Source of the DNA: Candidatus Thorarchaeota archaeon
Lineage (GTDB): Archaea; Asgardarchaeota; Thorarchaeia; Thorarchaeales; Thorarchaeaceae
DNA: 32,000 nucleotides
Assembly: GCA_003345555.1 (NCBI GenBank)
Contig: PRDJ01000039.1
Span: 1-32,000 of the forward strand
Direction of reading: 5' to 3'
The first letter of the stretch is position 1; every line of letters begins with the position of its first letter. Positions 3,957-22,041 of this stretch are shown in pieces. The position numbers were made by a program, and so were the translations under genes. The notes below the pieces were generated by a model, which searched no databases, was not told the origin of the DNA, and saw only the letters and a list, made by a program, of their open reading frames with translations.

Positions 3957-5522
3957 TTGTCCCGGAAGACGAGTTGGAAAGACAGCAATTGGTACGTGAG
4001 CATTAGAGGGTTTGTGAGAGAGTATCGCAAACACCGTGTAGGCGTCTTTGGAGTTATCCTTCTACTCTTCTTCATTGGAATGGCGGTCTTCGCGCCCAAC
4101 CTTGCTACAAACGACCCGGGTCGCAGTGAGAGAGTAGCATCTCCTTTTGAAGCGCCCGGCTGGGCTCAGGTGTTTGACCCCAATGCGATTACGACGGGAG
4201 AGTATATGCCCGACCCGCTATTTGCTTCTGCACCAACAGAGGTGATAGCCGGAAACTCAACAGAGTTCGGTATGGTTCATCACGCAGCGGTCAACGAAGA
4301 GGATCCAAGCTATGTGAATCTGACATGGACACATACTGCAAACACTCCGCTTGATTTCGTTGTGCCACCCATACCGCTGAGCCAGTTGCCCGACTGTCGT
4401 GACTTCGTCTACATCAACGAGACTTTGGATTGGCCAAAGGATCGCTTGCCGAATGGAGTCAACTTCACCGTAAACTATGGGGTAACCCTGTCCGGAGATT
4501 TTCTAAACGAGACCAATGGCGGACTGATGTTCAAGGTTTACGCTTGGTTGATTGACACATCAAATGAGTGGACGATGATCTACTCTTCATCTCCGCCATA
4601 CACGCCCATCATTCAACCACGCCGTAGTCTGCTGAGTTCATTTGAAATCAACTATGCATGGGCCGGAATGATAAGGGAAAACGGAACACAAGAGGATCCT
4701 GCGGACCGGCTCACAGTTGCAATAGGGCTCGCCCCGACCAAACAATTCCGTTATTTCAGCGGTGAATATCCTTGGACGGAGTACAACGGGTCCGTTACTG
4801 TCCAAGTCATGTCAGTCAGTATGATTTGCTATGGCGGCTACTATGGAGTTATGGGGACTACGAATCAGGGAGCGGATGCTTGGAGCCAACTTGTGTTTGG
4901 TGCTAGGATGTCATTGACAATCGGAATTCTTGCCACTGCTTTGTCGACTGTCATCGGCGTTGTGGTTGGCTTGGTTGCTGGCTACTCGGGCGGCAAAGTG
5001 GATGAGGTACTCATGCGATTCGTGGACTTCCTGCTCGTTATCCCATTCCTGCCTCTAATGCTGGTTCTAGCTGTCTTCCTTGGACGGTCTGCTGCGAACA
5101 TAATATTCGTAATTGCGATACTGGGTTGGACCACCGTGGCCCGTCTTATTAGATCACAAGTGATGGCCGAGAAGAACAAGGCCTACGTTGAATCCGCCAG
5201 AGCAATCGGCGCATCGGACACGTATGTCATGTTCAAGCATATATTGCCTAACGTTACTCCTATTCTATTTGCCACCATAACGCTCGGGGTTGTAGGAGCA
5301 ATCCTGTCTGAAGCCGGCCTCGCTTTCTTGGGACTCACAGATGCTACCTACCCAAGCTGGGGCATCATGCTCTCCGATGCGCAGCAGAATGGGGCATTTG
5401 GCGTTGGTGCTTGGTGGGTTGTTCTGTTCCCCGGTCTAGCAATCACAGGTCTGTCGCTTTCCTTCACGTTCATAGGACATACACTTGACCAAGTGCTTAA
5501 TCCACGATTGAGAGAGAGGTGA
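3957..5522 (+). CDS. oppC: Peptide ABC transporter permease (OppC/DppC) with a large extracytoplasmic insertion
   Basis: OppC N-terminal helix and TM1, then about 245 aa of insert, then GTTNQGAD..SQLVFGARMSL, EAA loop YVESARAIGAS..HILPN, SWGIML. SD AAGGAGGT at 3943-3950, TTG start. Confidence 0.92.
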   Translation: MSRKTSWKDSNWYVSIRGFVREYRKHRVGVFGVILLLFFIGMAVFAPNLATNDPGRSERVASPFEAPGWAQVFDPNAITTGEYMPDPLFASAPTEVIAGNSTEFGMVHHAAVNEEDPSYVNLTWTHTANTPLDFVVPPIPLSQLPDCRDFVYINETLDWPKDRLPNGVNFTVNYGVTLSGDFLNETNGGLMFKVYAWLIDTSNEWTMIYSSSPPYTPIIQPRRSLLSSFEINYAWAGMIRENGTQEDPADRLTVAIGLAPTKQFRYFSGEYPWTEYNGSVTVQVMSVSMICYGGYYGVMGTTNQGADAWSQLVFGARMSLTIGILATALSTVIGVVVGLVAGYSGGKVDEVLMRFVDFLLVIPFLPLMLVLAVFLGRSAANIIFVIAILGWTTVARLIRSQVMAEKNKAYVESARAIGASDTYVMFKHILPNVTPILFATITLGVVGAILSEAGLAFLGLTDATYPSWGIMLSDAQQNGAFGVGAWWVVLFPGLAITGLSLSFTFIGHTLDQVLNPRLRER

Positions 5523-14797: not shown

Positions 14798-15589
14798 TTG
14801 TTGCATAAGATATGCTTGACGAACGACGATGGTCCAGCGAGTCCCGGGCTGTTGAGTCTTGCAGAGCATCTGAAAGATACCGCAGACCTGATTGTTGTCG
14901 TGCCCGACGGGCAAAGAAGCGCCTCCGGGAAGGGACAGACGCTGAATCGTCCGCTAAGAGTGACTCATGATGCCAACGCTATTGGCTACAGAATGATTAC
15001 CCACGATGGTCTGCCTGCCGACTCCGTGGTCATGGCTCAGCACTTCGCTAAGAATCTCGATCTCTTCGTGTCGGGCATAAACGCCGGTGCAAATGCGGGA
15101 TATCAAAGCATTCTCACAAGTGGCACAGTGGGAGCAGCAATCGAAGCCGCTCTGAGGGGTTATCCGGCTGTCGCGATATCCATGGAGGTCTCCTCCGACA
15201 ATTGGTTCTCGCAATCTGGAAAGGACACGGATTTTCATGTGATTTGTGAGATGGCAACACGCATCATCAATCGGATTCTTGAAACGGGCATGCCAAGAAA
15301 CACAAGTGTACTGAACCTGAACTTTCCGCGCGAAATCACCGACAGGACGCGGGTAGTCGTGACAAGACCAGCGAAAGCTCGGTTGAAGGACGAAATCGAA
15401 CGTAGGATTGACCCGAATGGTAGTCCCTACTACTGGGTTCGCGGTGTCGAAATCACTCCCCCAAAGGACACGGACGTTTATGAGGTCTTGACAAGAGGCA
15501 ACATTTCTCTCTCTCCGATTACCATCGAGGGCGTGACCGACGCCGAGCTCGACGCTGTGAGGGACTTCGTAAGGTCTCTATCTTTGTGA
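14798..15589 (+). CDS. surE: 5'/3'-nucleotidase SurE
   Basis: LTNDDG, QRSASG, GLPADSV, SGINAGAN, SGTVGAAIEA, PYYW. Start probably TTG 14798 or 14801 after GGGAG. Confidence 0.92.
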   Translation: MLHKICLTNDDGPASPGLLSLAEHLKDTADLIVVVPDGQRSASGKGQTLNRPLRVTHDANAIGYRMITHDGLPADSVVMAQHFAKNLDLFVSGINAGANAGYQSILTSGTVGAAIEAALRGYPAVAISMEVSSDNWFSQSGKDTDFHVICEMATRIINRILETGMPRNTSVLNLNFPREITDRTRVVVTRPAKARLKDEIERRIDPNGSPYYWVRGVEITPPKDTDVYEVLTRGNISLSPITIEGVTDAELDAVRDFVRSLSL

Positions 15590-16577
15590 GGGCGCCCCAT
15601 AGTGCGTCTGTGATAGGTCGGGGAAGAGTGCTTCTGCTTTTTCCCGATACGACCTCGCGCTTGCTCCGATCTTGGACTATGGTGCCTATGACTCTTGCCT
15701 CGATCCCATCTTTCTTGATTCTTCCGATGACTTCGTCAGCATGATTTGCATTGCAGGTCACAATCATACATCCGCTACTGATGAGTTCGAGCGGGTTTAT
15801 GTCGAGTTCGCGGCAGATCGATGCCGTTGAAGGATGAATGGGCACAGCATCGAGGTCCATCTCAAATCCAACATCGCTTGCATCACATACCTCATGTACG
15901 CCCCCAGCAAGACCTCCTTCCGTGGGATCGTGCATTGCAGTCACATAACCGGTCTTGAAGGCGGCCAGGCCTTCTCTGACTACGCTGATTTCATTTCGGA
16001 GGCGGCGTGCCTCACCAAGCATGGGCTGGCCGATTGCACCAGAGAGAACTTCTGCCCCTTCTGCCGCGAGGATAGCTGTCCCTTCAAGGCCTACGGTCTT
16101 AGTAATGATGATTGAGTCGCCGGGTTGTGCGCCAGAAGAGGTCACGTATTGTCCTTCACGCGTGATTCCCAGCATGAACCCTGCTACTATCGGCCTATCT
16201 GTGCCTCCGGTTACCTCCGTATGTCCCCCCGCTACTGCTATTCCCAGCGACTTAGAAGCATCATCAATCTGTTCCATGATTGGGCCAATGTCCACTTCGG
16301 CGCTGCCGCTTGGCAGCATTATCGATGCAAAGAACCATCTCGGAGCAACTCCAAAGGTTGCTATGTCGTTGGCATTAACATGGACCGAGAGCCAACCAAC
16401 GTCCTCAATAGAGCCAGTTATTGGATCCGTGGAGGCAACGAGGATACTCTCTCCAATTCTGATTAGTGCGGCATCTCGACCAGTGCCGGGGCCGAGCACC
16501 AAGTCGGGGTCCTTCCTGCCCAATCTTGTAAAAACAAGACTCTCTAGCACATCCGTGGGGAGTTTTCCGTGAAGCAC
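15519..16577 (-). CDS. AIR synthase-related (PurM/HypE/ThiL superfamily) protein
   Basis: GPGTGRDAA, STDPI, NANDIA, GGHTE, MHDPTEGGL motifs. Specific reaction not assignable. Confidence 0.85.
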   Translation of the reverse strand: MLHGKLPTDVLESLVFTRLGRKDPDLVLGPGTGRDAALIRIGESILVASTDPITGSIEDVGWLSVHVNANDIATFGVAPRWFFASIMLPSGSAEVDIGPIMEQIDDASKSLGIAVAGGHTEVTGGTDRPIVAGFMLGITREGQYVTSSGAQPGDSIIITKTVGLEGTAILAAEGAEVLSGAIGQPMLGEARRLRNEISVVREGLAAFKTGYVTAMHDPTEGGLAGGVHEVCDASDVGFEMDLDAVPIHPSTASICRELDINPLELISSGCMIVTCNANHADEVIGRIKKDGIEARVIGTIVQDRSKREVVSGKSRSTLPRPITDALWGALTKIETLRSPSQRRARRRSRPRW

Positions 16578-16772: not shown

Positions 16773-18203
16773 CTACTTGGCTACGTACGTTTCGGCTCTT
16801 CTCAGGTTCTGCGTGTTGTGCCTGTTCTGAGGTTGAGTTCCCTTTAGCATGAAACCTAGAGCTGAACGCTGCGCGAGAATCTCGCCTGAAAGGAACGCCT
16901 TACCACCACTTGCTCTTGCCACAAGAAAGGCACCAAACGATTTTCGGAACTCAGGAATACTGATGACAGTCTCTATGGAATCCTGAAAGCCTTCCTTTTT
17001 AGCCCTCAGCAACACTGCCAGTTCCATTGCATCGTGGTACGGCCTCTTGAGGAGCTTCGACCACTTTGACTGTTCGGCGTCAACGTTTACTGCTGCCAAT
17101 CGCACTCTCTGAGTTCTAAGCAATCTCGCGGCCCTTACGATATCGTGTACCGGAGAATAAGTGACATCCTCATGGTGTAAGGACGCGACCAATGGTATGT
17201 TGGGTGAGAAGTCCGAGACCATGATGATGAGAGACTCACCATTGCCTGCTCTAATGCGTTCTCGTCGTACTGTCTCCAAAGCCTTTGCCAGTCCGTCTGC
17301 CAGTGGTGTGAGACCAGAGATTCTGAGGCAAGCGAGAGCTCTGAATATCCTGTTCCAGTTTGAGGTCGGTGTCTGAACTTGGACTGCGCCGCTGTCCTTG
17401 AAGGCGACTATTCCAATCCTATCTTTCGAACCTCTCGTTTCCTGTTCGATTTTCTCCACGAGCCTGCGCACTTCATTCATGCTGCCTTTCATTGACAGAC
17501 TTGCATCAATGACAAGAATGATTGTAAGGGGAGCTCTTTGAGACAGAACCTTCTCTCGCAAATCCTCATCGCATATCTTCAGTCTCTCATGTCCTCTCGT
17601 CTTGCCCGTTCTGAGCGCGGCGGCAACAATGGTAGATCTAATGCTTGGCGTGGACACTTCACCATGAGGCATTCTTGCACGAACGAATCTGCCTGTTTGC
17701 CTGCTTTCCGACGCCTTGAGCGAACCCATGGCTCTAGAACTCACTCGCTTTCGGCACCAATTGCCTGATGACACGCTTGAACGCATCATCCCATGGGAGT
17801 GAAGCCGTTCTGGGTCGAAGAGGTTCTCGCCACTGGCTATGTCTGGGGGTTTCATGAAAAAACTCATATCGAGTCCGGTTGGACTGCTTCTGATGTCTGA
17901 CTTGGGACCGGTGATCTTTGGAGGCACCGTTGGTGTGTACGGGTGTGTTGCTTCTCCCCACTCGTCGCCTTGATCCGGCGTCGCGCCTTGGGGCTCCACA
18001 ACGTCAATTCCTGCCGCTGGTCCGCTCTCTCGTCTCATCATTCCCCTCAGCCAAGCACGAACGAGATAGTAGGCGCATGGGATGTACACGATGGTGTCTA
18101 GTGCCAGTACAAAGGGGCTCGGAAATGTGGCAGGGTTCAGGCCGTATATGAGGTTAATGGGACTGAAGAATATCCAGGCAAAATAAGTGAAGCCCACCAC
18201 CAT
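16773..18203 (-). CDS. ChlD-type vWA (integrin-I) domain ORF with an N-terminal TM hairpin; probably the 3' part of a frameshift fusion with the upstream AAA+ ORF
   Basis: ChlD-like GRFVRARMP..STIVAAALR..DLREKV; MIDAS DASLS, T (GLTPL), D (VSDF). The frame is open upstream of ATG 18203 through the A9 run to a TGA near 18338. Confidence 0.85.
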   Translation of the reverse strand: MVVGFTYFAWIFFSPINLIYGLNPATFPSPFVLALDTIVYIPCAYYLVRAWLRGMMRRESGPAAGIDVVEPQGATPDQGDEWGEATHPYTPTVPPKITGPKSDIRSSPTGLDMSFFMKPPDIASGENLFDPERLHSHGMMRSSVSSGNWCRKRVSSRAMGSLKASESRQTGRFVRARMPHGEVSTPSIRSTIVAAALRTGKTRGHERLKICDEDLREKVLSQRAPLTIILVIDASLSMKGSMNEVRRLVEKIEQETRGSKDRIGIVAFKDSGAVQVQTPTSNWNRIFRALACLRISGLTPLADGLAKALETVRRERIRAGNGESLIIMVSDFSPNIPLVASLHHEDVTYSPVHDIVRAARLLRTQRVRLAAVNVDAEQSKWSKLLKRPYHDAMELAVLLRAKKEGFQDSIETVISIPEFRKSFGAFLVARASGGKAFLSGEILAQRSALGFMLKGTQPQNRHNTQNLRRAETYVAK

Positions 18204-18250
18204 TATGACCGCACAAATGGTTCCCCTTATTGGGTCACCACGGGGTCTCC

Positions 18251-19444
18251 TTATCCCTTGTTTAGCTTTTTTTTTACGTCTGTTGCCCCGGCTTCTGCCG
18301 TTCTCTGCTGGCGGCCGAACACTCCTCCTGTGCGTCGTTCAGTCTGCTTCTCTGGCGTAGGAGGAACCTCTGTAGGCGATTGTCGACGATCTCGCTTTCG
18401 GACGACTTCCTCAGCCTTGACAATCGCAGTATCAATTTCATCCGCCGAAGGAGGCTCCAGCAATCCACCTCTCCTTGTTCGGTGGCTCAGTGCCAGCTGC
18501 GCAGCAAGCTTCATGTCCTCGAGAGTCACTTCCTTGCGACCCTCCAATGCAGCGTTAGCTAAGGCTGTCTTGCTGATGATGATGTCCGGTCTTACGCCAT
18601 CAACTTCGAGTGCATCACATGCCATGGCTATAGCTCTCAGCCTCGACTCGGGAAGCACAACATCTTGGAGTATCTCCTTCGCATGAACGACTTTCCGCTT
18701 CAAACTGGATTGACGTTCTGACCATTCATCCTTGAATTGCTTTGGATTTCTTTCGAAGGCCAGATTCCGTTTGACGAGCTCCATTCGATCCTCGACGCTC
18801 AAACCGCCGCCAACGGCAACGTGAAGTGGAAACCTATCTAACAGCTGGGGTCTCAGTTCTCCTTCTTCCGGGTTCATGGTTCCCACCAGAACGAAGTCAG
18901 ACGGATGGACGAATGATATGCCCTCTCTCTCAATCACATTGACTTTGGTTGCTGCCGCGTCAAGCAAGTCATCAACCAAGTGGTCTGGCAAAAGGTTCAC
19001 TTCGTCGACGTAGAGGATATTCTGGTTTGCTTCGGCCAAGATTCCGGGCCTGAGTGCTTGAACGCCCTCCTTCAATACACGCTCTATGTCAAGAGATCCG
19101 ATAAGTCGGTCTTCAGTTGTCGAAAGTGGAAGATTGACTACGCGCATCTTCCGCCGCAGCAATCTGAGTTCCTGTCCCTCCTCATGCCGTCCCCGACAAT
19201 CCGGACAAAGTGAATCGCCCGCCGGATCGCATCCGAAGACACAACCCTCCACAATGGTGACTTCCGGCAGGAGGTCTGCAAGCGCCCTGACCGCAGTTGT
19301 CTTGCCAGTTCCTTTCGGGCCTGATATCAGGACGCCGCCGATTCTCGGGCTCACACCATTGAGAATGAGAGCAAGCTTCAGCTTCTCTAATCCAACGAGG
19401 GCGGCGAATGGCATCACAGACCGTTCAAGTTCGGTCAAGGACAC
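18251..19444 (-). CDS. chlI: Magnesium/cobalt chelatase ChlI-like AAA+ ATPase
   Basis: PFAALVG, Walker [23 protein letters not shown], Walker [31 protein letters not shown] start. Confidence 0.88.
18266..18275 (-). other. Candidate -1 programmed frameshift or transcriptional slippage site (A9G; heptamers A_AAA_AAA and A_AAA_AAG)
   Basis: Minus strand reads GAC GTA AAA AAA AAG CTA AAC AAG GGA TAA. The -1 frame reads AAA GCT AAA CAA GGG ATA...GTC ATA ATG into the vWA ORF with no stop. Confidence 0.75.
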
Positions 19445-21357: not shown

Positions 21358-22017
21358 CTACTTCTCTGCCTCTCGCTCTTTCTCCTCACGTGCCTCTCGT
21401 TCGAGATCTGCCAGAAGGTCGTCAATCCTTTTCTCTTCGGTGCGAGGTTTGCGGCCAGATTCTTTCTGCTTCTGCTTAGCGAGCGGCGGCAAGACCTTCT
21501 CCTTTTCCAGCATGATTTCTGCCTCCATGGCCTCTAGCTCCTGATTGATTCTCTTTTCCATCTCGACTGTGGTTCCACTCGTGGAGAGGTCTTCAGAGAG
21601 CAGTTCGCCTGCCTCAGATATTTGTTCGAACGATTGTGTGAGTTTATCCAGCTGCATCTGTATCTCAACCGGGCTGAGCATGGCCTGCGCTTTTGAGAGT
21701 GCATCATTCGCTATCTTGAACGCTCCCAAGACATCAGTCTGGTCTTTTGCCTCCTCGATGTTCATGAGCGCTGTCTCAAGCGTGAGGAATTGCTGACGAT
21801 ATCTGGCCCTGCGGTTGTCCAAATCAAGCATGATTGACAGGTGCGACCGGGCCAACGACTTTTCACCCCCGGCCATAGCCTCTTTCGCAGATTTTCGCTC
21901 TTCCTGCATTCGCGTTTCGAGCCTGCGAGTCCTAAGGGTCAGGGCATTCATGGTTCCTTTGATTTCGAGGATTCCTCGTTCGGTGTCCACTTTTTTCTTG
22001 CCGCTCAGAAAGCCCAT
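21358..22017 (-). CDS. ESCRT-III protein, Snf7 (Vps20/32/60-type) family
   Basis: MGFLSGKKK start, long basic helical hairpin, LETALMNIEEAKDQTDVLGAFKIANDAL core, acidic C-terminal half, IDDLLADLE tail. Start at ATG 22017. Confidence 0.8.
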   Translation of the reverse strand: MGFLSGKKKVDTERGILEIKGTMNALTLRTRRLETRMQEERKSAKEAMAGGEKSLARSHLSIMLDLDNRRARYRQQFLTLETALMNIEEAKDQTDVLGAFKIANDALSKAQAMLSPVEIQMQLDKLTQSFEQISEAGELLSEDLSTSGTTVEMEKRINQELEAMEAEIMLEKEKVLPPLAKQKQKESGRKPRTEEKRIDDLLADLEREAREEKEREAEK

Positions 22018-22041
22018 TGCGTGCACCGTTCCTATCGTAAC

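Follow-up and report, generated by a model that had tools for sequence, protein, structure and literature searches.

A conserved poly-A slip site and a predicted membrane hairpin in an orphan ChlI/ChlD-type AAA+/vWA locus of Thorarchaeota

The fs-chlD genes are the closest described counterparts of the locus considered here. In these genes, a ChlI-type open reading frame (ORF) ends after a poly-A run and the -1 frame leads on into a von Willebrand factor A (vWA) domain, which provides a small and a medium subunit, and in-frame fusions of the two parts are found in relatives (PMC3711429; PMC9227772). In reporters of chelatase genes of this kind, those of Methanocaldococcus included, 63%, 40%, and 10% shifting was seen for 11, 9, and 7 A's, respectively (Antonov et al., 2013, PMC3711429). 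Some of the genes are orphans of unknown function, found in organisms without the large subunit or the pathways (Kuznetsov et al., 2022, PMC9227772), and such orphans have been proposed to represent the ancestral state of chelatase motors. Here we describe a locus in a 32,000-nt stretch of DNA from Candidatus Thorarchaeota archaeon (contig PRDJ01000039.1, assembly GCA_003345555.1), referred to as the window, in whose positions all coordinates are given. Its two ORFs lie on the minus strand, and we consider it probable that this one locus gives rise to two subunits of an orphan ChlI/ChlD-type AAA+/vWA motor, the long one of which carries a membrane hairpin.

Membrane-attached vWA proteins and recoded AAA+ genes are both known from other systems. 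BatA/BatB-type vWA proteins have N-terminal transmembrane (TM) helices and are encoded beside MoxR ATPases. The tau and gamma products of dnaX arise by frameshifting at A_AAA_AAG in E. coli and by transcriptional slippage on an A-run in Thermus, the shift giving the short product. As for how AAA+ and vWA partners work together, the vWA domain of CobST moves onto the AAA+ pore upon ATP binding (bioRxiv 10.64898/2026.10.09.757910), while in NorQD, a MoxR AAA+/vWA pair that matures the membrane-bound nitric oxide reductase, the vWA domain plugs the pore (PMC9976466).

In the window, the ATPase ORF reads in the zero frame to a TAA stop five codons after a run of nine A's (A9), and three Lys codons of its C-terminus (D-V-K-K-K-L-N-K-G-stop) belong to that run. 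The open stretch of the -1 frame extends from 18338 to 16773, and a shift on the run would join 393 and 497 residues into a computed product of 890 residues. The features are listed below with residues numbered as in the -1-frame protein (P0001), in which the two hydrophobic segments and their loop at 18218-18060 correspond to I41 to V93.

18251-19444, minus strand: ChlI-type AAA+ ORF of 397 aa in the zero frame, with Walker A (GPKGTGKT) and Walker B (YVDEVN) and a TAA stop at 18253-18251.
18267-18275, minus strand: A9 slip site, read GTA AAA AAA AAG in the zero frame and CGT AAA AAA AAA GCT in the -1 frame.
18222-18266, minus strand: N-terminal basic flank, 15 residues of the -1 frame from the slip site to the first helix, overlapping the zero-frame stop and without a start codon.
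18138-18221, minus strand: predicted TM helix 1 (TM1, T40-L67), in which a W is conserved and S-P-I-N forms a kink; it contains ATG 18203.
18117-18137, minus strand: uncharged loop N-P-A-T-F-P-S, predicted to be extracytoplasmic.
18060-18116, minus strand: predicted TM helix 2 (TM2, P75-V93), with a conserved D/N-T and P.
18030-18059, minus strand: C-terminal basic flank R-A-W-L-R-G-M-M-R-R, from the translation and the charge count.
17523-18029, minus strand: conserved linker of about 170 residues, many of them invariant, modelled with low confidence (predicted local distance difference test, pLDDT, below 50; disordered in the AlphaFold2 model).
17067-17522, minus strand: vWA domain (Pfam VWA_2 2.7e-11, VWA 1.1e-7) with an intact metal-ion-dependent adhesion site (MIDAS; D278, S280, S282, T344, D376).
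16773-17066, minus strand: additional helical domain at the C-terminus, about 95 aa long and confidently folded in the model (pLDDT about 87-92); the coordinates include the stop codon.

Comparison with known families leaves little doubt about the nature of the two ends of the predicted protein. The AAA+ ORF matches NCBIfam TIGR02030 (BchI-ChlI) at 1e-114 and the ChlI structure 8osf in the PDB at 4e-95, and its Pfam matches (AAA_5, AAA_lid_2, and Mg_chelatase) identify a ChlI-type module in which Walker A, Walker B, and the lid are present. It is the only ChlI-type gene of its own genome. A sequence-only reading of the window had placed a ChlD-type segment and an intact MIDAS behind the hairpin. 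Both are borne out by a TIGR02442 match that begins at residue 198 (model positions 403-619 against P0001 198-425) and covers the ChlD-type segment and the vWA domain, and by an alignment in which the DxSxS (here D-A-S-L-S), T, and D columns of the MIDAS are invariant. The vWA part also gives a profile match to BchD (2x31), and a Foldseek search with the model returned generic vWA folds only, with NorD (9qhe) among the best structural matches. Besides the ChlD-type GR..R.R.P / PST..AA segment, the linker carries the motifs SGPAAGID..GDEWG.., KS.IR, FF.K.PD, and VSSG.W..KRVSSR. The C-terminal helical domain has no match in Pfam or the PDB and no informative match in the structure atlas; it is kept in the Thorarchaeota family and partly in a sister family (f12, see below), and it is absent from canonical ChlD.

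The junction between the two frames was compared in related loci, of which 65 were retrieved, all from Thorarchaeota-type metagenome-assembled genomes, with counts made over 58-60 of them. In 57 of 60 loci the A-run occupies the same position, as A9 in 42, A10 in 10, A11 in four, and A8 in one (L001); L038 and L045 also have A9 there, leaving L048 as the only locus without it. Seven positions of the run show zero entropy across 58 loci, third codon positions included, next to neighbouring third positions of about 1.5 bits. The zero-frame stop follows five codons past the run in nearly all loci, and in every locus except L001 the vWA part lies in the -1 frame with respect to the ATPase. Between this stop and the first conserved ATG lie 15 codons with entropies of 0.51, 0.29, and 1.50 bits at vWA-frame positions 1, 2, and 3 (58 loci), which is a clearer coding signature than that of the codons after the ATG (0.92, 0.67, and 1.49 bits). 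No start codon is conserved in these 15 codons: upstream of a conserved 'MM', ATG, GTG, and TTG are all missing from 41 of 60 loci (38 of the 56 that are unfused), and the codon overlapping the zero-frame stop is ATA here and GTA, GTG, ATA, ATT, or GTC in kin. In-frame fusions are found in L013, L016, L033, L053, and P0010, each with one A more than unfused relatives of the same run context, and the first four of these carry A10 or A11. From the A-run, the -1 offset, the entropy, the missing starts, and the fusions, it follows that the basic patch and the start of TM1 are translated, and that the ATPase frame is the only general route into them. The claim of the sequence-only reading that the -1 frame codes upstream of ATG 18203 is thereby strongly supported.

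Termination-reinitiation at the stop overlap was considered as a general mechanism and rejected, as the overlapping codon is mostly ATA or GTA; GTG takes its place in about 9 of 60 loci, and in two an ATG follows one codon further on. In L048 (about 4013-4127) the run is lost (GGG AAA AAG AAA CAG) and a seven-A site, CCA AAA AAA TAA, stands directly before the stop, still leading into the -1 frame. By its sequence, this looks like a relocated slip site. L045 carries both the A9 run and a seven-A site of the L048 type.

Directly after the slip site, the -1 frame encodes the predicted hairpin. The strings that the sequence-only reading had quoted for the basic patch, the two hydrophobic segments, and R-A-W-L-R-G-M-M-R-R are all present in the frame 18338-16773, and both segments pass the Kyte-Doolittle threshold of 1.6 in a 19-residue window, TM1 with a peak of 2.17. 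The Wimley-White octanol energies are favourable at -12.4 kcal/mol for TM1 and -6.1 kcal/mol for TM2, and a hydropathy scan found no comparable hydrophobic segment elsewhere in either ORF. AlphaFold2, run with 118 homologues, models a helix at 36-58 continued at 60-64, a loop, and a helix at 75-102 (pLDDT about 80-88); TM1 thus starts about 10 residues upstream of ATG 18203, in line with the earlier proposal that the first helix begins before that codon. The hairpin does not occur here by chance: it is present in about 60 related loci and is conserved in about 60 Thorarchaeota species, and six of its positions (W55, P60, N62, P73, P87, and W96) do not vary at all among 21 aligned sequences and stay invariant or reach at least 90% conservation among 118. 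Hydropathy, model, and conservation thus agree that the helices are capable of spanning a membrane and are conserved, where the opposite outcome would have counted against an anchor.

The distribution of charge bears on the topology of the hairpin. Over 58 loci, the mean number of K plus R is 3.86 in the 15 residues before TM1, 4.71 in the 12 residues after TM2, and 0.05 in the loop and TM2. By the positive-inside rule, basic flanks and an uncharged loop predict a hairpin with both ends inside (N-in/C-in), which fits the proposal that the AAA+ and vWA domains are both cytoplasmic. From these sequence properties we infer that the hairpin spans the membrane. Its polar residues (the Asn of S-P-I-N and the Asp/Asn of TM2), the disordered but conserved linker, and the C-terminal domain are candidate interaction sites. 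The RGD within P-R-G-D-P of the basic patch was rejected as an integrin-type motif, since the R position varies (R/Q/E/L/H/W/M/V) and is not conserved.

A profile search of 301 Asgard genomes found a full-length orthologue in 66 of the 76 genomes of the window's family, and in an exhaustive HMMER search all of the Thorarchaeota family fell into a single cluster at 50% identity. The same profile gave weaker matches in 19 of 19 genomes of the sister family f12, inside single ORFs of 856-892 aa that have no frame break and encode, in order, a ChlI-type ATPase, R-F-F-G…P-R-R-G-P-G-G-R-C, a hairpin with W-P-I-N, the basic R-I-Y-R-Y-H-K-R-P-G, and a vWA domain. This hairpin is recognisably related in sequence to that of Thorarchaeota, and the domain order is the same. 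The placement of the hairpin between the AAA+ and vWA domains, as the sequence-only reading had it, is therefore seen within one ORF both in rare Thorarchaeota loci and throughout f12. In three f12 genomes (G135, G146, and G165, with the loci L070, L071, and L079), the protein is encoded as one ORF of 862-883 aa from the first start (open frames of 873-892 aa), with neither an A-run before TM1 nor a separate chlI gene.

In the AAA+ tree, whose backbone is poorly resolved, the Thorarchaeota module is sister to the f12 form with 97% support, and the TM label is clustered (7 changes versus 12.6 for shuffles). In 23 of the 39 nearest relatives with a Walker A module, TM-like segments, numbering from two to six or more, separate the ATPase from the vWA part; relatives of 600-680 aa have no hydrophobic segment there. 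These 23 relatives match TIGR02442 in two stretches split by the insert, and they come from Heimdall-, Hod-, and Bathyarchaeota and from Thermoprotei, under the names 'VWA domain-containing protein' or 'AAA family ATPase'. A survey of Asgard homologues for the hairpin, proposed with the sequence-only reading, thus finds it in Thorarchaeota and f12, and finds a predicted membrane anchor also in Heimdallarchaeota and Hodarchaeota and, beyond Asgard archaea, in the other two groups. The Heimdall- and Hodarchaeota relatives of 945-1060 aa (L076 from G301, P0145, P0147, P0166, and P0168) have four to six or more TM-like segments; in some lineages the anchor has thus expanded to a multi-pass membrane domain. 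Judged by these sequences, the hairpin is an old feature of a broad archaeal clade and not peculiar to this gene.

The partner genes of a chelatase are missing. The sequence-only reading had pointed out that the window holds no ChlH/CobN gene; extended to whole genomes, CobN/ChlH (PF02514) is absent from the locus's own genome (93.5% complete) and from all 81 genomes of the order, 24 of them of high quality, in a search that was positive in five control genomes. HemB (PF00490) was found in none of 41 genomes, all at least 90% complete, and HemC (PF01379) was not found in the own genome. With neither CobN/ChlH nor tetrapyrrole synthesis, the client is not expected to be a porphyrin-binding chelatase subunit. 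The family scores point the same way: TIGR02442 gives 445.8 and 113.1 bits for the two halves (547.5 for the fusion P0010) against a cut-off of 779.45, TIGR02030 gives 383.2 against 466.95, and TIGR02031 gives 69.1 against 499.55. The locus therefore has the ChlI-type AAA+ module and the C-terminal MIDAS vWA domain preceded by a ChlD-type segment that mark chelatase motors, and lacks the cut-off score, the large subunit, the tetrapyrrole pathway, and the soluble linker, in whose place it has two TM-like helices. It also has the marks of the fs-chlD recoding class, namely a conserved poly-A site that ends the ChlI-like part with a -1 continuation, and in-frame fused homologues.

Some observations weigh against the proposed two-subunit locus, and they concern the shift, a possible internal start, and the second helix. 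With regard to the shift, the zero frame reads the run as A_AAA_AAG at this locus and as A_AAA_AAA in most kin, so that tRNA-Lys can re-pair perfectly in the -1 frame, and recoding of this kind is known from the chelatase reporters (PMC3711429). However, RNAalifold predicted no pairs for 32 loci from the run to 100 nt downstream or 100 nt upstream, so a classical stimulated -1 frameshift is not supported. As the run is conserved at nine or more A's, rather than seven, and a transcript of the in-frame genotype that has lost one A could still encode the short form, we lean towards transcriptional slippage over ribosomal frameshifting. No RNA runs containing the locus are listed. Finally, the closest relative, L001 (73% identity; 4079-4193), has A8, which puts its vWA frame at +1 and not -1, through either a homopolymer miscall or real variation in run length.

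The possible internal start raises the question of whether these are simply two adjacent genes, with a vWA protein of 476 aa made from ATG 18203 and anchored at its N-terminus, no fusion, and no hairpin between domains. Gene callers annotate most relatives in this manner: database homologues are mostly called as stand-alone proteins of 475-477 aa that start with M-M-V-V inside TM1, some as 492 aa, and one as an 880-aa fusion. All 60 loci retain an ATG at one or both of the two 'MM' positions, and TM1 would still have 22 residues when started at ATG 18203. However, purifying selection is stronger on the 15 codons before that ATG than on the codons behind it, and these 15 wobble in the vWA frame and contain no conserved start; the A-run is invariant, and in-frame fusions are seen both in kin and in every genome of a sister family. 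We therefore regard two ordinary genes as improbable. Their product can exist beside the fusion, not in its place, and a stand-alone hairpin-vWA protein from the conserved ATG may be a third product of the locus. Still less credit is due to the idea that a homopolymer error, made in sequencing or assembly, produced the frame break, or that it marks a pseudogene, the true gene being a plain in-frame fusion. Homopolymers are error-prone, assemblies differ in the length of the run (A8 to A11), and a small number of loci are in frame, yet about 50 independent assemblies from many studies have the same -1 offset and the zero-frame stop at the same place, and both ORFs are under purifying selection. 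An independent Logan assembly of one DNA run has the same A9 at a depth of 12, although it may derive from the source reads; among contigs of other sequencing runs, one covers 17908-18069 only and two cover nothing, so that the A9 run is covered by one.

As to the second helix, TM2 barely passes the hydropathy threshold in this window (1.61), and the TM prediction as a whole comes from hydropathy scales and the AlphaFold2 model. The hairpin might then not cross the bilayer, and instead form a wedge of the monotopic or re-entrant type or a buried element for oligomerisation, and the loop of only about seven uncharged residues, the conserved Pro/Asn kink in TM1, and the conserved Asp/Asn in TM2 could be read in this way. 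On the other hand, both segments are helical, 19-28 residues long, and strongly favourable on the octanol scale, their flanks obey the positive-inside rule, and relatives carry two, four, or six and more such segments at the same place, as true membrane spans would. A wedge is thus unlikely, though it deserves more thought than the alternatives above, and monotopic insertion would anchor the protein to the membrane all the same. The possibility that we are dealing with an ordinary Mg- or Co-chelatase motor, with an unrecognised large subunit or tetrapyrrole substrate, is the hardest to uphold. Its appeal lies in the best family matches, which are BchI/ChlI, BchD/ChlD, and the 'putative cobaltochelatase' TIGR02442, and in the reading of Bathyarchaeota ChlI/ChlD homologues as chelatase (PMC7110647). 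Against it stand the missing CobN/ChlH, HemB, and HemC, scores that are all far under the curated cut-offs, and the documented precedent of orphan fs-chlD genes without a pathway (PMC9227772).

We thus return to the two-subunit motor and its place among the described systems. The locus appears to descend from, and to work like, a ChlI/ChlD motor, and it belongs to the published fs-chlD class, with which it shares the poly-A end of the ChlI-type ORF, the -1 entry into the vWA part, the pair of small and medium subunits, the in-frame fusions among relatives, and the orphan state. It differs from that class in the hairpin, which stands where the published proteins have a soluble linker, in its Asgard lineage, which is new, in the extra C-terminal domain, and in the absence of a conserved RNA structure downstream of the run. 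What is new is the membrane anchor: the text of Kuznetsov et al. (2022, PMC9227772) contains neither 'membrane' nor 'transmembrane', and a limited literature search found no paper describing such an anchor. With ChlI/ChlD (BchI/BchD) and CobS/CobT, the locus has in common the ChlI-type ATPase, the ChlD-type segment before the vWA domain, and the MIDAS, and the mechanism to be expected is likewise that of a ring with an adaptor whose vWA domain docks on the AAA+ pore; unlike them, it has no ChlH/CobN, no tetrapyrrole synthesis, and scores under the family cut-offs. NorQ/NorD is likewise an AAA+/vWA pair, its client is an integral membrane protein, and the vWA domain of NorD resembles the one found here. 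However, NorQ is of the MoxR class and not ChlI, NorD is not reported to be membrane-anchored, and the client gene is adjacent in that system, whereas no nor genes lie at this locus. BatA/BatB resemble it as membrane-anchored vWA proteins that work with an AAA+ ATPase, but the AAA+ class is another one, the genes are separate and without a frameshift, and the anchor is N-terminal instead of between domains. In dnaX, the slippery motif is the same and the two products share an N-terminal AAA+ module and enter one complex, but here the shift would yield the long, membrane-anchored product.

The surrounding genes add little to this picture. An AIR-synthase-related (PurM/HypE-like) gene (15519-16577, minus strand) is the next gene downstream, in the same orientation, in 62 of 66 Thorarchaeota loci, and with its Arg-rich 3' end it runs about 70 nt into the convergent surE; the SurE, ThrC-like, and HAD genes are also syntenic in Thorarchaeota loci. 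None of these four accompanies the fused gene in other Asgard families. The neighbours were therefore rejected as functional partners or as a clue to the client, their synteny being at the level of the family only. Flanked by a HAD phosphatase and an inositol-monophosphatase-like gene, a stand-alone Snf7/ESCRT-III homologue (PF03357, 6.9e-14) is encoded at 21358-22026, also on the minus strand.

Taken together, the locus could function as follows. Normal reading would give the soluble 397-aa ChlI-like ATPase, which ends five codons after the A9 run. A one-base backward shift, by -1 slippage of the ribosome at A_AAA_AAG or by an extra A from RNA polymerase, would give a protein of about 890 aa with the ATPase, a basic patch, a hairpin inserted from the cytoplasmic side, a second basic patch, the linker, the MIDAS vWA domain, and the helical domain. 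The efficiency of the slip may in this way set the ratio of the subunits. By analogy with ChlI/ChlD, CobS/CobT, and NorQ/NorD, short and long forms would co-assemble, the ATPase probably forming a ring and the vWA/MIDAS part probably acting as the adaptor. The hairpin would hold the ring at the inner face of the membrane while the vWA domain and its MIDAS engage the client, which we infer to be a membrane protein.

A broader reading is possible as well, which we put forward tentatively and hold to be somewhat more doubtful than not. Membrane-tethered ChlI/ChlD-type motors would be widespread in Asgard and TACK archaea and act on a non-tetrapyrrole client, with poly-A slippage in Thorarchaeota setting the ratio of free to anchored subunits and the chelatase motor being a later recruitment. 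If true, the work on the client might be, for example, the insertion of a metal cofactor into, or the remodelling of, a membrane protein complex at the cytoplasmic face, and the chelatase motor would have been recruited from an older and more general membrane-associated remodelling machine. Apart from this reading, the locus is of interest for the proposal, mentioned at the outset, that the ancestral state of chelatase motors is preserved in orphan fs-chlD genes.

It also bears on annotation. ChlI/ChlD homologues of uncultured archaea are routinely annotated as 'Mg-chelatase' and have even been read as hints of chlorophyll synthesis; in Bathyarchaeota metagenome-assembled genomes lacking cobalamin genes, they were interpreted as a possible Mg-chelatase of the chlorophyll pathway (PMC7110647). 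The Bathyarchaeota relatives P0132 and P0144 are fused proteins with a predicted membrane anchor, a reason to treat that interpretation with caution. A large archaeal branch of the family, nearly universal in Thorarchaeota, would then do something else, and do it at the membrane. The anchor, the MIDAS, and the slip site offer concrete targets in the search for its client, and the locus would be an unusual case in which recoding decides between a soluble and a membrane-bound ATPase subunit.

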